Assembly: GCA_963768305.1 (NCBI GenBank)
Contig: CAVYHE010000009.1
Location: forward strand, 1 to 64,000
Length of the DNA stretch: 64,000 bases
DNA from: an uncultured bacterium
GTDB taxonomy: Bacteria; Margulisbacteria; WOR-1; CAVSGV01
Reading direction: 5' to 3'
Part shown: piece after piece, positions 3,001 to 27,000 of the stretch
Layout: each line of letters begins with the position of its first letter
Numbering within the stretch: the first letter of the stretch is position 1
Position numbers: made by a program

Positions 3001-6000
3001 GGCCCACGAACAACTGGATGCCCCCCGCCGAAGCGTATGCGAAAGCAAAAGGATATTTCAGCGGATCCATGAAAGGCCGCACAATGTACGTCATCCCATT
3101 TTCAATGGGCCCCGTAGGCTCCCCTTTCAGCAAGATCGGCGTTGAACTTACCGACAGCATATATGTGGTTCTGAACATGCTCATAATGACACGGGTCGGC
3201 AACAAAGTCCTGGAAAAGCTCGGTACTGAAGGGGAATTCACAAAAGGCCTTCACAGCAAGGCCGACCTGGACGTCAATAAAAGGCTTATCCTTCATTTCC
3301 CGGAAGACAACACGATATGGAGCGTTGGAAGCGGGTACGGCGGGAACGTACTTCTGGGGAAGAAATGCCTCGCTTTAAGGATAGCGAGCTATCAGGCAAA
3401 AGAAGAGAACTGGATGGCCGAGCATATGCTGATAATGGGCATTGAAGATCCCAGCGGATACATCGGCTATATCGCGGCGGCATTTCCATCCGCCTGCGGA
3501 AAAACAAATCTTGCCATGCTTATTCCGCCGAAGGGTCTCCAAGTTAAAGGATACCGCATCTGGACGGTAGGTGATGACATCGCATGGATGAGAGTTGATA
3601 CCGACGGTTCTTTGTGGGCGATAAATCCGGAAACTGGGTTTTTCGGCGTTGCTCCGGGGACGAACAGCAAAACGAATCCGAACGCGGTGGCAACCATACA
3701 AAAGAATACCATCTTCACGAACGTTCTCCTGAAAAAGGACCGCACTGTCTGGTGGGAAGGCGCCGACGGAAATGTCCCGAAAGAAGGAACGGATTGGACG
3801 GGAAAACCGTGGAAGCCCGGGCAGGTGGATGAAGGCGGAAATCCCATAAGGGGAGCTCATCCTAATAGTAGATTTACCGCTCCCATAGCCCAATGTCCGT
3901 CGATAACCAACAGGATAGAGCATCATCACGGCGTGCCGATAAGCGCGATAATATTCGGCGGCAGGCGCGCGACCACGGCCCCTCTGGTCTACGAAGCCAC
4001 AACATGGCAGCACGGCGTTTTTATCGGCGCGACAATGGCATCCGAAAGGACAGCGGCGCAATACGGAAAACAGGGCGAAGTAAGGCGCGATCCCATGGCG
4101 ATGCTGCCGTTCTGCGGATACAACATGGCGGATTATTTCCGCCACTGGCTGAAAATGGGAAAGCTGATGACACGGCCTCCGAAGATATTCCATGTGAACT
4201 GGTTCAGGACCGACGAGAACGGGAATTTCCTCTGGCCGGGATACGGCGAGAACCTGAGGGTGCTTGAGTGGGTGATCGGCCGCTGCAGGTCAAAGGTGGA
4301 CGCCGTGCAGACGCCTATCGGATATATCCCGAACATGAAAGACCTGGACATGACCGGATTAAAACTCCCGAAGAACGCGCTTAAGAAGCTTTTTGAGATA
4401 AAGAAGCAGGAGTGGCTGGCGGAAGTGGAAGCCCAGAAAAAGTTCTTTGCGATATTCGGAAAGAACTTTCCAAAAGAGATATTGCAGGAACACCACGCTC
4501 TTGAAAAAAGGATAAAAAAAGAGCTCTGATTCATGGCCAACACACGATTATTCCTTCTCCGCCACGGAGAGACCCAGGCCAACCTGGAACAGCGATATCA
4601 GGGTCAGGGCGATTCCCACTTAAGCGAGCTTGGCATTGACGAATCTGAAGCCCTTTCCAAATTCCTGGCAAAAGAGGATTTTGCCGCCGTATATTCATCA
4701 ACATTAGCAAGGTCATATGAAACTGCGAAGATAGTTGCTAATCCCCATAAGCTGGAAGTTGCAAAGATAGAAGACCTGATGGAGCGGAATTACGGCATCT
4801 GGGAAGGCCTGACATTTGAGGAGATAAAGAAAAGGTTCCGTGATCTTTACGGAAGCTGGCTGATCGACCCGGGAAAGACGCTCATTCCTAACGCCGAACC
4901 CCTTGCATCCATGCAAAAACGGGGGGTTGCTGCGATCGAAGCCCTCATAGACAAGCATAACGGAAAAACCATCTGCGTGGCGGGCCACGGCGGGCTGAAC
5001 AGGGCCATTCTATTCCACTACATGCATATTGACCTGAACAATTTCTGGAGGATACGGCAGGATAACTGCTGCGTGAACATCATTGAATTCGACCAAGTTC
5101 CCGATAATTACGCTTCTCAACAGCACTGCGTTCTTGGGCGAAAAAAAGGTCAAAAGCGGCGGGGTGTATTAGGAATTAAGTATCGGATTCGGCTTATTGA
5201 TCTGTTCCAGTATATTCGCGAGGATCTTCAGCTTTTCGTCTTCCGGGACCGTATCCAATTTCTCTGCATAATGCTTCAATAGAGCTTATTTTTTCCGTGG
5301 CTTTCCTGATGGCGACTTTCAATTCCTGAACATTCTGATCTTTATTTTCTTTTAAAAGTTTATCATACGCCAGTTTATCGGCCTGCCTGTTCATTTCGTT
5401 ATTTTGTTCGATCTTATCCAGGACCGCCTGTGTGATATCGGAACTTAAAGCGGCAAGCTTAAGCAGATTTAAATTATCCACGAACTTTAGAGCGTTTGCA
5501 TAATCAAGTACAGAGGCATTTCCGGGCGGCAATATTTTATCTGCGATTGTCCGAGAAAGAGCCGCATTGTGGGCGTCGATCTTTGCCAACATATCCGCTC
5601 TGCCGCCGGCAATTTGGTGCAACTCGCTGTCGATCCTCGAAATCTGCGGCATCGCTTGTCTTATTTCATCGGAAGACATCTGCCCTACTATGTTCTTTTC
5701 CGCTGACATGGATTCGAGCGTTAAATCATCCATCTCGGATGAAACACCTATAACTTCTCCGACAGTCTCGGCGCCATCCAATAGATCAGCTACTGCCTCT
5801 AATTTTTCTCCGCAATCCGCCATTTGCCCGGCCCATGCTAATATAGCGTCAGCCTTAACGATCTTTCCCGCCATCTTTTGATCTAAGATCGAAATAATCC
5901 TTTGAACGTTCTGATCTGAATACCCCTTTTCTTGTAACTTTGCGATAACTTTATCTCTGTTTTGAAAATAGCTGACGGCGTGTTCTTCCATAGCGGTTGC

Positions 6001-24000: not shown

Positions 24001-27000
24001 TGAAACTATGTTATTGGACTGAACATCGCTCTGGATATAATTCGAGGATTGATCCTGCTCGACCGCGGATCCGGTGGCCACCTGCGAAGTGGAAACGCCG
24101 TTCGATACCGCGACATTGTCGATCCCGATTGAAGCGGATGGATCAAATACAGACGGGACATCAGAAGCTATATAGGAGGGGGAGACAGAAGCGCCGCCGG
24201 CGATATCGTTAGTATCATCGACTTTTTGAGTATTGGTTAATTGCTGTATGTTTATGTCTGTCATTTTTGCTTCCCTTTACACTATATATATCGGGAGAAT
24301 AGGGGTAAAACTTGCATGGAAAATAAGAGAAATTGGGCTTAAAAAAGGCCTGAAAAACGGGGAAAAGGGCGTGAGGCGGGACTATTTGGTATCAACAGGC
24401 TTAGGTTGCAGGCGCGAGCTTGCCGCAACTTCTTTCGCGGCGTCTTTCTCGGCTTTAACCTTATCCACTTTTTCAACTTCTGTGGCGACTATCTTGGGAT
24501 CGCCTCTGAGCCATTTGATATGTGCCTTTAAGGAGCCTTCCGGGCCGTAAACAGGAACGTTGTTCCACCTGCCAGGTTGCATGCCATAGTCATCCACGAT
24601 GGTCGAGAGGAACGCCTTCATGACATCCTTGTCCTTGATATTCACTTTATAGAGATCCGATTCCCGCCCGCCCTGCTCCTCCAGCAGAGAAGCCAGCCCG
24701 ACCTCCCCGCTCAAAGTGGCAAGACCTGCCATGCACATGATATTTTTCGCATTGTCATTGTTTTTTCCCTTAATAGTCGCCGAATTATCTGGGTTCTCTA
24801 ATATCCTTAGTTGAGGATTATTTAATTCGAAATATTGCAAATATTGGACCAACATGGTTTTTTCATAGCCGTGAAGATAATTGTACGGGTCTTTCGTGCC
24901 GCCAGCCGTCTGGGCTTTTCCATCATGATTTCTTTCTAAAATTATTTCACTGACAAATTTCGCTAGGTCCTTATAATCTTCCTCTATATTCTTCAAAAGA
25001 GCCTTTTTATCCTCATCGCTCAAGGTCGCATCTGCCTTTACGTTCTTGATCGCCAGATCGCGCATGGATATTGCTACCTTCGCCGCCATGATGCTTTTCG
25101 GCACAAGGAAGAATTTTTTGGCGGCAAAAAGCTGGAGCATTTTTCCGGCCTTATTTGAGGATACTGTGCCTGCAAAAACAAGAACCTCGTTCTTTGTTTT
25201 GTCCACGAATGTTGCAAGCGAAATGTCGTCCGTTTCAGGATCGTATCCCCCGCTCTGGTCCCCGTATAACACGTCAAAGGCATTGTCAGTGACATCCCTT
25301 ACGGAAGTTCCGCTGAACATTTTCTCGAAGAAACCCATATCTTTATGGATAGCGTTTATCAGGGACTTAACACCTGCGGGGTTCATCCTGATCTGCGACA
25401 GGATATCAAAGTCAGGGGAGTTTTTAAAAGAAAATCTAAGATCCTTATGTTTCCCTTGCGCATTCTCTTCAGCGTCTATCTGAATATCTATCCGATTTGC
25501 AAGCCATTGTCTGATGTGGCCTGTATCGAATTCCGGCAGATCCAACATATCGAAAATAACCTGCTCTTCCGTTTTAAGGGTCATAATGGACGATGCGACA
25601 ACATCTTTATTGAAACCATTGTCCAGCATTTTCCGGATCGGTTTATCGTATGCTTTCATGAGGGAATCGGCCATACTGTCGCCGTATTTTATCGCAAGGT
25701 CGGTCCTTATCAATGCTATCTTGTCATTGGAAGTAAGCTTTGACGGCAAGACATATGAAGCATCTGTTTTTTTATCAACTGTTTGTAGAGGAACCATGTC
25801 GATCTATCCTTTTTTTAAGAACTTATTCTTCTCGCTCAGCTTCTTTTCCAGTTGTTCCGCTTTTTCCGCGAATTTTGCTTTTAATCCGGTTAATTCCTGT
25901 TCAAGCTCTTTTTTCCTGTTCTGGTATTTTTTTAATTCGGCGTAATATCTGGCCAGAGAATAAAAATAGTATCCGGCAATGACTATAAAAAGAAGAATAG
26001 CCCACCAGGCATGCTCTATGAATTCAATTATTATTTGTGTTGTCATATTTTTTGGTCAACTTTACCGGGCACCGGACTTTTGTGGCCTTCTGTCAGACCA
26101 TACGCCTGCTCTCTGGACCCTTTCGATGGATCCTTTAAATACTCAAAAAGATCAATTGCCCCTTTTAGCGGATCGGCTTTTTCTGGATCATTGGCAGGGG
26201 CAGGATTAAGTCCGGCATTATAATCAACTGGCCCTTGCTTTGTTGCCATTGAACCGATCCATTCCGCGTCTGCAACAGCTTGTTTTACATTTTCCGCTTG
26301 CTTTTGCTTGGCTTCGTTTTTACCTTGCATATATTTTTGAACCGATGTTGGGTCTACGAAAGCTGATTGCGTCGGCACTATGCTCACGATAAATTCCTCC
26401 TTATATCAGAATTAAGGGCGAACACACCTTTTCTCACATCTATAATATCGGGACAACTGGGCTAAAACTTGCATGGAATCAGCTTGCAGCTAGATGGTTC
26501 TGTCAGGCTCGATTTTCGTAGCAGGGGCAAGTTTCATCCCTTGTTTCACTCTGCAGCGGTTGCTGATAACGGAACCCTCTTCGAGGGTGACATGATCTTC
26601 CAGTTTGCACCAGCTGCCGACAAGGCACTTTTTGAGGACCGCGCCTTTTCCCACGTGCGTATCCGACCATACGGCGGAATCTGAGATCGACTGTTCCATC
26701 CTCTATCACGCATTTATCTCCGATGGATACATTCCCGTAAATTTCGACATTTTCACCAATAGATGCCCTGTCGCCGATTATGATAGTCCCTTCGAATTTC
26801 GCGCTCCTCGCCACATGCGTGTCCCGCCCGAGCCACGTGGAAGAGCTTACGCGCCTGGCCGAGACCTCCGCCCTTACTCTTCCCTGAAGGACGTCGGAAT
26901 TCGCGGCTTTCAATTTTTCGATCCCTCCCACGTCGTTCCAGTATTCGATCATCTTGTATCCGAAGAATTTCGAGCCCCCGGAAACAAGCTGCGGAAATAT

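Follow-up and report, generated by a model that had tools for sequence, protein, structure and literature searches.

The window, a 64,000-nucleotide stretch of DNA from an uncultured member of the Margulisbacteria (class WOR-1), carries on its reverse strand a run of genes under copies of a sigma28-like promoter (Table 1). The motif, TGCAAGTT-N15-CGATA, has 11 exact matches genome-wide at a spacer of 15 and none at spacers of 10-14 or 16-20; allowing Y at motif position 1 gives 13. The fixed-spacer motif reported in a preliminary description of this DNA is thus real, as is the copy ahead of fliK (C9:103510). That description placed promoters before six genes of the locus. The window holds five copies (starts 26473, 24316, 13350, 12792 and 8969), and a one-mismatch search of its positions 1-30000 added none. 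Scattered orphan genes, including those for a putative metallopeptidase and TPR proteins, are also under this promoter. YGCAAGTT-N15-CGATA occurs in all 65 class genomes and is not limited to that class, being found in 119 of the 146 phylum genomes (backwards-motif control: five matches in all 146). A FliA-like gene scores 145.7, below the 189.6 cut-off, and flhA is followed by a second short sigma gene; one of these two linked sigma factors is the candidate reader of the promoter.

Table 1. Genes and promoters of the late locus, in the order of transcription
Feature	Position	Strand	Basis or remark
sigma28-like promoter 1	26446..26473	-	motif search
114-aa orphan, first gene	26043..26387	-	by position; relatives have a 90-135-aa gene there
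80-aa small protein, hydrophobic N-terminus	25804..26046	-	positional counterparts of 67-83 aa
471-aa orphan	24382..25797	-	homologues in G004 and G006; elsewhere a 300-490-aa gene at the same position
promoter 2, ahead of giant gene	24289..24316	-	placed alike in most class loci
giant protein piece 1, 445 aa	22927..24264	-	family-specific N-terminal extension, transglutaminase-like core
giant protein piece 2, 1,192 aa	19322..22900	-	variable insert, repeat unit 1 at end
giant protein piece 3, 1,702 aa	14199..19307	-	repeat units 2-5 and coiled C-terminal tail; candidate tip/pore
four-helix-bundle gene, 23S rRNA IVP family	13492..13887	-	Pfam E 8e-19
promoter 3	13323..13350	-	motif search
61-aa orphan	13112..13297	-	60-90-aa genes at the same position in relatives
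~100-aa orphan, conserved position	12799..13176	-	true start probably downstream
promoter 4, ahead of needle-like pair	12765..12792	-	motif search
small protein A (g01352), candidate needle subunit	12322..12720	-	two helices flanking a variable loop
small protein B (g01351)	11756..12061	-	weak paralogue of A; may be a second needle subunit or an inner-rod/adaptor one
g01350, 603-aa orphan	9922..11733	-	position conserved, length variable
g01349, 164-aa orphan	9426..9920	-	by position
130-aa conserved helical protein (alignment A3)	8992..9386	-	split over two frames in the assembly
promoter 5	8942..8969	-	motif search
g01346, 888 aa, gatekeeper (SctW) lead	6228..8894	-	520-550-aa all-helical core
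339-aa orphan, last gene	5194..6213	-	variable counterpart in relatives

The gene order was described as conserved; it is kept in the class loci examined, and its core extends to other classes. The IVP-family gene is an insertion outside this order, and the 130-aa helical protein is a phylum-wide marker of the locus. In other lineages the position of g01349 is taken by a protein of 250-310 aa, which includes the N-terminal half of the next gene as well. The ~100-aa orphan is a putative anti-sigma factor or chaperone, and g01350 is a candidate tip or junction protein. Many relatives' loci include a glycosyltransferase gene, which we take from its N-terminal motif to belong to a family typical of filament modification.

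Needle, tip and gatekeeper candidates

The likeness of the small proteins to needle subunits holds for language-model features: needle clusters take rank 1 for A in the ESM Atlas (score 0.92, a weak signal; 194 of 256 features, 22 of 30 hits). A profile of B places six known needles at ranks 1, 2, 3, 10, 15 and 85 of 796, with reversed needles at 5-130 and flagellin ends at 22-139. The profile of A, whose alignment leaves out one wrong member (L056), ranks FliE and flagellin ends about level with needles. A needle profile does not favour forward A or B over the reversed sequences (p 0.1 and 0.36), and a flagellin profile slightly favours forward A (p 0.017). The likeness does not extend to family or fold matches. 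Pfam finds nothing for A, B, the giant core or g01346 among the window proteins; for 16 and then 95 members of the A family, no needle family is among those listed, and Flagellin_C appears at E 0.045 in one of each set. The Pfam needle model has no match above the cut-off in the 146 genomes, and most of its best weak matches fall in long, unrelated frames. Four profiles searched against PDB sequences reach E 0.23 at best, and the A profile has 83 matches among 1.84 billion representatives, none recognisable as needles. HH-align with 14 reference families stays below 4% probability throughout, at a power limited by shallow references (3-8 sequences). Language-model features and a weak directional profile signal point, weakly, to A and B as needle subunits.

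The three pieces of the giant protein align in order, with a frame change, to a single 2,620-aa ORF in a relative (G004). Piece 1 matches residues 1-291 of that ORF at 54% and has a Transglut_core domain (Pfam E 7.3e-6). The repeat, counted three times in the preliminary description, occurs five times as tandem 210-residue helical units with hydrophobic hairpins. Five units are present in 33 of 40 homologues, never more, and the inserts are so variable that lengths run from 1,373 to 3,441 aa. Because the units are five and in tandem, they suggest a single-chain five-fold tip or pore. The comparison with translocators stands for the coiled helices and hydrophobic hairpins, but sequence and fold searches are negative or tied. 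SseC is absent among the 25 Pfam families listed for 22 giant cores, and HH-align with translocator references gives 1.1% probability. Foldseek with the core has no match at E 0.001, only common helical arrangements. In a VIA search with the predicted model (pLDDT 73, pTM 0.67), the IpaB N-terminus comes only at rank 28, level with generic hairpins (127 aligned, rmsd 6.9, Z 9.1). One query for a TPR translocator chaperone found none in the genome.

The gatekeeper guess for g01346 was made before the ESM search that put gatekeepers at ranks 1-2 (0.77). HH-align with SctW gives 0.15%, SctW is not listed in the fold searches, Foldseek has no match at E 0.001 and VIA returns generic helices only. 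We treat g01346 as a lead to a gatekeeper.

A flagellar-type base separate from the flagellum

The system encodes the export gate and ATPase, the MS ring, a rod of FliE and FlgB/C/F/G, both the P and the L ring, a FliK ruler and the FlhB switch, with flgB, flgC and fliE all in its own cluster. The rings are kept, as described earlier, but the hook is represented only by a short hook-type protein (287-293 aa at the FlgE position, where G134's true flagellum has 656 aa). FliG is reduced to its N-terminal and middle parts. No flagellin match exists in this genome (86% complete), and one of the 65 class genomes has flagellin, so the base is indeed flagellin-less; stator, FlgK, FlgL, FliW, FlhF and FliL were not found here either. 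The stator and FliG C-domain are absent from this genome and from 61 of the 65 in the class, and present in G013 and G018; in G018, fliG-C, motA and motB adjoin the system's genes. FlgH occurs in 60 and the MotB plug in four of the 65; outside WOR-1, MotA-like genes are frequent (56 of 81). The genome has no match to SctD, and no secretin is linked to the system; two secretin-like genes on other contigs could be used by it.

FlhA is present in 135 of the 146 phylum genomes and flagellin in 15. All four flagellated genomes tested encode two FlhA and two FlgH proteins: one set comes with FlhF, FliL, long FlgE and FlgK/L, and the other is like that of this genome. Three relatives (G134, G123, G124) carry true flagellins, FlgK and FlgL alongside the late locus and a second basal body. 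We therefore conclude that this is a separate machine and not a shrunken flagellum, in line with the earlier view of a flagellar-type base with its own late genes.

Position among type III export systems

The FlhA tree places the clade as sister to all injectisomes, including the Myxococcal type (98 in FastTree; 99 under LG+G4 and 95 under C20, both after the misread frames L181 and L189 of the first tree were dropped). FlhB joins the two at 92. Two four-gene concatenated trees, the second with a flagellar-type FlhB blanked in the Chlamydiales row and eight rows removed, give the same sister position at 100 and 100, and it stays at 99 once the 30% of columns that evolve fastest are taken out; all these supports are SH-aLRT values of short searches. 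AU tests (LG+G4, only five injectisome and 16 flagellar rows) reject three other groupings (p 7e-5, 4.6e-4 and 3.9e-5; all p<0.001), including an origin from the phylum's own flagellum (p 7e-5). On these trees the clade appears to be the sister of the injectisome (Sct) lineage and not a member of it; the earlier statement that the system is separate from that lineage is replaced by this sister relationship.

The grouping could also stem from long-branch attraction, or from convergence of export genes no longer bound to motility, if the phylum ancestor had a duplicated or acquired flagellum whose filament was lost and which turned independently to needle-like export. Such repeated exaptation of flagellar export has been reported (Abby and Rocha, PMC3459982). 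The stems of both clades are long (0.45 and 0.6), the backbone is poorly resolved when each clade is taken alone, and the ATPase tree by itself leaves the position open, with the clade outside Myxo and SctN. For every core gene, flagellar models outscore those of injectisomes (FlhA 763-781 vs 649-669 bits). Nonetheless, we consider this independent conversion unlikely, as the grouping is stable under C20, with fast columns left out and in each of two genes taken singly, and the phylum's own flagellum is rejected as the source.

The system shares with injectisomes (Ysc, SPI-1, Chlamydia) the branch of its export genes, small helical subunits with needle-like features, a gatekeeper lead, the lack of flagellin and mostly of a stator. 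Unlike them, it retains FliE, FlgB/C/F/G, FlgA/H/I, FlgD/E-type genes, FliF, FliM/N, FliO and a FliA-like sigma factor, its core genes score as flagellar, and it has P/L rings without a linked secretin or SctD. One giant five-unit protein would replace the separate tip and two translocators. The Myxococcal systems are likewise early-branching, secretin-less, conserved and vertically inherited, but lack FlgBCDEK, FliEG, FlgH, MotAB and SctF (Abby and Rocha 2012, PMC3459982), whereas the Margulisbacteria system has a rod, rings and needle-like subunits and branches outside Myxo and injectisomes together. With the flagellum it shares the basal body, ruler, FlhB switch and sigma28-type late promoter; it differs in the short FlgE, the truncated FliG, the filament and accessory genes missing from this genome (flagellin, FlgK, FlgL, FliW, FlhF, FliL) and, in one clade, its presence beside a true flagellum. 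The basal bodies of Buchnera and Lysobacter enzymogenes arose by recent reduction from the flagellum of Proteobacteria. Unlike these, the Margulisbacteria system spans its phylum, comes with a conserved late locus of its own and falls outside every flagellum sampled. It shares with them a flagellar export apparatus that lacks flagellin, as described for Buchnera (PMC3459982) and reportedly found in Lysobacter.

A possible third kind of type III machine

We lean towards the reading that Margulisbacteria hold a third kind of type III machine, a filament-less base with needle, tip and gatekeeper parts that injects a touched cell. When the rod and short hook reach their length, FliK would flip FlhB and a dedicated sigma factor would turn on the late promoter. 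A and B would be exported and polymerise on the hook as a thin helical-hairpin needle, and the five units of the giant protein would fold into a five-fold tip made of one chain, its hydrophobic hairpins entering the contacted membrane. Export order may be set, gatekeeper-like, by g01346 and the small helical proteins upstream, and other genes under the same promoter could encode the cargo. Passage through rod and bushing would replace the secretin of injectisomes. We infer injection by the system; its target could be a host or prey cell touched by the bacterium. In a host-associated member of the phylum, a Trichoplax symbiont, basal-body genes are transcribed in the host and no flagellin row is given (PMC6784892). 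The symbiont is reported without a canonical secretion system, and its thin tubes to the vacuole membrane are ascribed by the authors to chaperone-usher fimbriae (PMC6784892).

The same parts could build an appendage for attachment or rotation without injection, with A and B as a thin filament, turning where a stator is kept, and the giant protein as a cap or adhesin anchored in a partner's surface. The highly variable inserts of the giant protein and the glycosyltransferase of many relatives' loci would suit this role, and five-fold caps are known in flagella (FliD). Motor genes adjoin the system in G018 and also in the Trichoplax symbiont table (PMC6784892). We find this improbable: stator and FliG C-domain are missing from nearly the whole class, the repeat units have hydrophobic hairpins, and the promoter stands before scattered, cargo-like orphans. 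That A and B are minimal flagellins replacing the filament of an ordinary flagellum is very improbable despite the Flagellin_C hits and the slight preference of the flagellin profile, being largely refuted by coexistence with true flagellin, FlgK, FlgL and a second basal body; the system's FlhA, too, stands apart from that of the coexisting flagellum.

We regard the system as an undescribed type III lineage and a plausible flagellum-to-injectisome intermediate. Because its export genes group with those of the needles and its cluster resembles needle, tip and gate, it may be a surviving step from flagellum to injection needle. It is possible, if short of probable, that the ancestor shared by all injectisomes was a flagellar base with rod and rings, already equipped with needle, gatekeeper and five-fold membrane-inserting tip, predating the Myxococcal type and kept phylum-wide. 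If so, needle and translocon would be older than secretin capture, and bacteria or protists, besides animals, may be targets of injection via a flagellar bushing.

The route from flagellum to injectisome is a long-standing question, and the one surviving intermediate of the published scenario is already without rod, rings and needle (PMC3459982). With a phylum-wide machine that has rod and rings and yet branches beside the injectisomes, the order of events becomes testable. The machine may also give this phylum of small-genome bacteria a means of host contact, and the giant protein, if it does form a tip of five units in one chain, would be unusual as a target for structural work.

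Basal body and its relation to the flagellum

The core genes of the machine are found in two clusters, on contigs C4 and C9. They comprise FlhA, FlhB, FliP/Q/R/O/N/M, FliJ/I/H/G/F/E, a FlgE-position gene, FlgD, FlgB/C/F/G and FlgA/H/I, together with a small protein resembling FlhB, two sigma factors and FliK. One sigma is short, with only regions 2 and 4, and lies directly after flhA both here and in the system copy of G134; it may be the early or late sigma of the system. In both genomes, panD (aspartate decarboxylase) sits between flgA and flgH. With relatives' proteins as queries, FlgK, FlgL, flagellin, FliW, MotA, MotB, the FliG C-domain, FlhF, FliL and FlgJ were not found in this 86%-complete genome, corroborating a flagellin-less basal body. 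FliG has a length of 177-181 aa. The protein at the FlgE position has 287-293 aa versus 656 aa for a true hook. FlgH occurs in 60/65 genomes of the class, the MotB plug in 4/65 and Flagellin_N in 1/65, the sole match being a solitary protein whose start resembles a signal peptide (G045).

The system is a second machine alongside the flagellum. Across the phylum, FlhA is present in 135/146 genomes and flagellin in 15/146. Families f44-f47 carry flagellar filament genes, and each of their 13 genomes has at least two FlhA matches; the four tested have two FlgH. G134 encodes one set with FlhF, FliL, long FlgE, FlgK and FlgL, a second set in the gene order of this genome's system, and the locus genes giant, B, marker and g01346. 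Some versions of the machine may be able to rotate, since MotA-like genes occur in 56 of the 81 genomes outside the class and a fliG-C, motA, motB trio is present in G018, directly upstream of the system's flgD, and in G013. The MotB of this trio seems to have a LysM-like domain at its end (weak matches to YneA/SafA) in place of the usual anchor.

Curated models class the core genes as flagellar (FlhA 763-781 bits on the flagellar model vs 649-669 on SctV). The preliminary description separated the system from the non-flagellar T3SS lineage, but the FlhA, FlhB and four-gene trees join them. In unrooted, thinly sampled trees with two long stems, SH-aLRT values from short searches for the system clade plus all SctV, including one Myxococcal, are, for FlhA/SctV, 98 (FastTree, 75 rows), 99 (IQ-TREE, LG+G4, 41 rows) and 95 (IQ-TREE, C20 mixture, 36 rows); FlhB alone gives 92 for system plus injectisomes. 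Under the same limits, FlhA, FlhB, FliR and FliI combined (1,670 columns) give 100 under LG+G4 (34 rows) and 100 under C20 (26 rows); removing the most variable 30% of columns gives 99. The ATPase tree sets Myxo and SctN apart from the rest and gives the system no resolved place, and the backbone is weakly supported when the system or injectisome clade is taken alone. Under LG+G4, grouping the system with Bacillota (AU p 3.9e-5) or the phylum's own flagellum (AU p 7e-5), or the injectisomes with four Gracilicutes flagella (AU p 4.6e-4), is rejected. With a root among flagella, for which Abby and Rocha argue (PMC3459982), the system would be sister to all injectisomes. A Chlamydiales genome (L288, G147) encodes a flagellar-type FlhB that clusters with Fibrobacterota and Ignavibacteriota.

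Promoter and gene order of the locus

The 1.53-Mb genome contains 11 exact matches to TGCAAGTT-N15-CGATA and none at the other ten spacers between 10 and 20, in line with the claimed spacer-15 specificity. Five copies fall in the window, each 40-90 bases upstream of a gene, where six locus genes had been credited with the promoter; the copy upstream of fliK is confirmed. A variant with Y at position 1 occurs in 65/65 class and 119/146 phylum genomes, and its backwards control yields 5 matches in total across those 146. The remaining promoter-class genes of this genome encode orphans, TPR proteins and a putative metallopeptidase, which are plausible cargo.

In the class, 33/65 genomes have a match to the giant protein's 1,702-aa piece. 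Twenty regions fetched around such matches bear out the conserved order on every contig of sufficient length. The promoter and the giant gene come first, followed by small genes, A (g01352), B (g01351), g01350, g01349, the 130-aa marker, often a glycosyltransferase, and g01346. The G017 and G045 loci are rearranged. The marker protein itself occurs in 119/146 phylum genomes. The locus also contains an inserted four-helix-bundle gene of the IVP family. G004 has a gene of similar appearance at another point of its locus, and G121 has three A-like genes in succession (L052).

Assembly errors probably account for the gene breaks in the window, because fragmentation also affects FlhA, formate-tetrahydrofolate ligase and glycerol kinase. 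Frame changes split many housekeeping genes across the assembly (e.g., L001/L002), and split ORFs of this genome should therefore not be taken as decay.

Coordinates of the locus and of related features
Feature	Position	Genome
Locus (-)	5194..26445	this genome
Giant protein, pieces	22927..24264, 19322..22900, 14199..19307	this genome
A	12322..12720	this genome
B	11756..12061	this genome
Transglutaminase-like core, giant N-terminal extension	22927-24264	this genome
Transglutaminase-like core, another promoter-class gene	L007:11822-13219	
IVP-family gene	13492-13887	this genome
Similar-looking gene	L016:2511-2870	G004
Frame-split housekeeping example	L004:7018-8368	this genome
Short sigma factor	L004:10201-10782	this genome
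panD	L008:9093-9662	this genome
panD	L061:7697-8050	G134
Flagellin_N match	L014:1408-2163	G045
fliG-C, motA, motB	L074:3096-6020	G018
fliG-C, motA, motB	L075:7349-10339	G013

Candidate axial, tip and gatekeeper proteins

B is a weak paralogue of A (probability 36.6%, E 0.0004). Both have two helical ends flanking a variable middle, and in other classes some members have just 74-90 aa. In the ESM Atlas, where 4-10 per 100 shuffled proteins also reach 0.9, the shortest class member tested places needle clusters at rank 1 (0.92, 194/256 features, 22/30 matches). Over 796 small proteins, the B profile places six known needles at ranks 1, 2, 3, 10, 15 and 85, with flagellin ends at 22-139 and reversed needles at 5-130. 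With the A profile, ranks are 8-49 for needles, 1-90 for FliE and 9-57 for flagellin ends. The Atlas and the B profile lend weak support to the earlier needle-like reading; Pfam, PDB and HH-align tests of A and B were negative. A and B are thus helical hairpins of axial type that come closest to needles, as candidate homologues.

The giant protein is a single ORF of 1,373-3,441 aa in relatives. Its repeats and hydrophobic segments are confirmed, the latter spaced by about one unit, but the units, of ~210 residues, number five rather than three: 33/40 homologous frames have five and none exceeds that number; a contig or region edge cuts off at least five of the remaining seven. A five-unit model from 39 sequences (pLDDT 73, pTM 0.67) builds each unit from a short beta hairpin, one helix of 40 residues, another that is very long, and a hairpin; a fold search with the five-unit core returned no outstanding match. 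Flagellar and needle filaments have five-fold caps and tips, which the five units fit, and the units may form a ring. The transglutaminase-like cores are possibly enzymatic cargo or a cross-linking tip domain. In L147 (G053:C1), five-unit giant genes form a tandem pair.

For g01346, a gatekeeper guess made ahead of the Atlas search was followed by SctW clusters at ranks 1-2, at a score of just 0.77. Its model is all-helical, and SctW was absent from its fold and profile test results.

Nature of the machine and expression in a host

The system keeps the rod and lacks a linked secretin, and therefore falls outside the injectisome family; nor is it a motile flagellum. Most likely it functions like an injectisome on a flagellar base. 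Our literature search, whose coverage of subscription papers was poor, found no account of it, and the principal genomic study of these bacteria contains neither 'flagell' nor 'secretion' in its main text (PMC6349859).

'Ca. Ruthmannia eludens' is a member of the Margulisbacteria living within Trichoplax cells. Its description (PMC6784892) reports no canonical secretion system, and thin tubes linking the cell with the vacuole membrane that the authors attribute to chaperone-usher fimbriae. The 21 'flagell' rows of its expression table comprise basal body, rings, FlgE, flagellar sigma and MotAB, and none is named flagellin, FlgK, FlgL or FliD; many are transcribed (FliM 1,760 and FliI 1,385 mean TPM). 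Without thereby demonstrating injection, this transcription is consistent with the machine being made inside a host.
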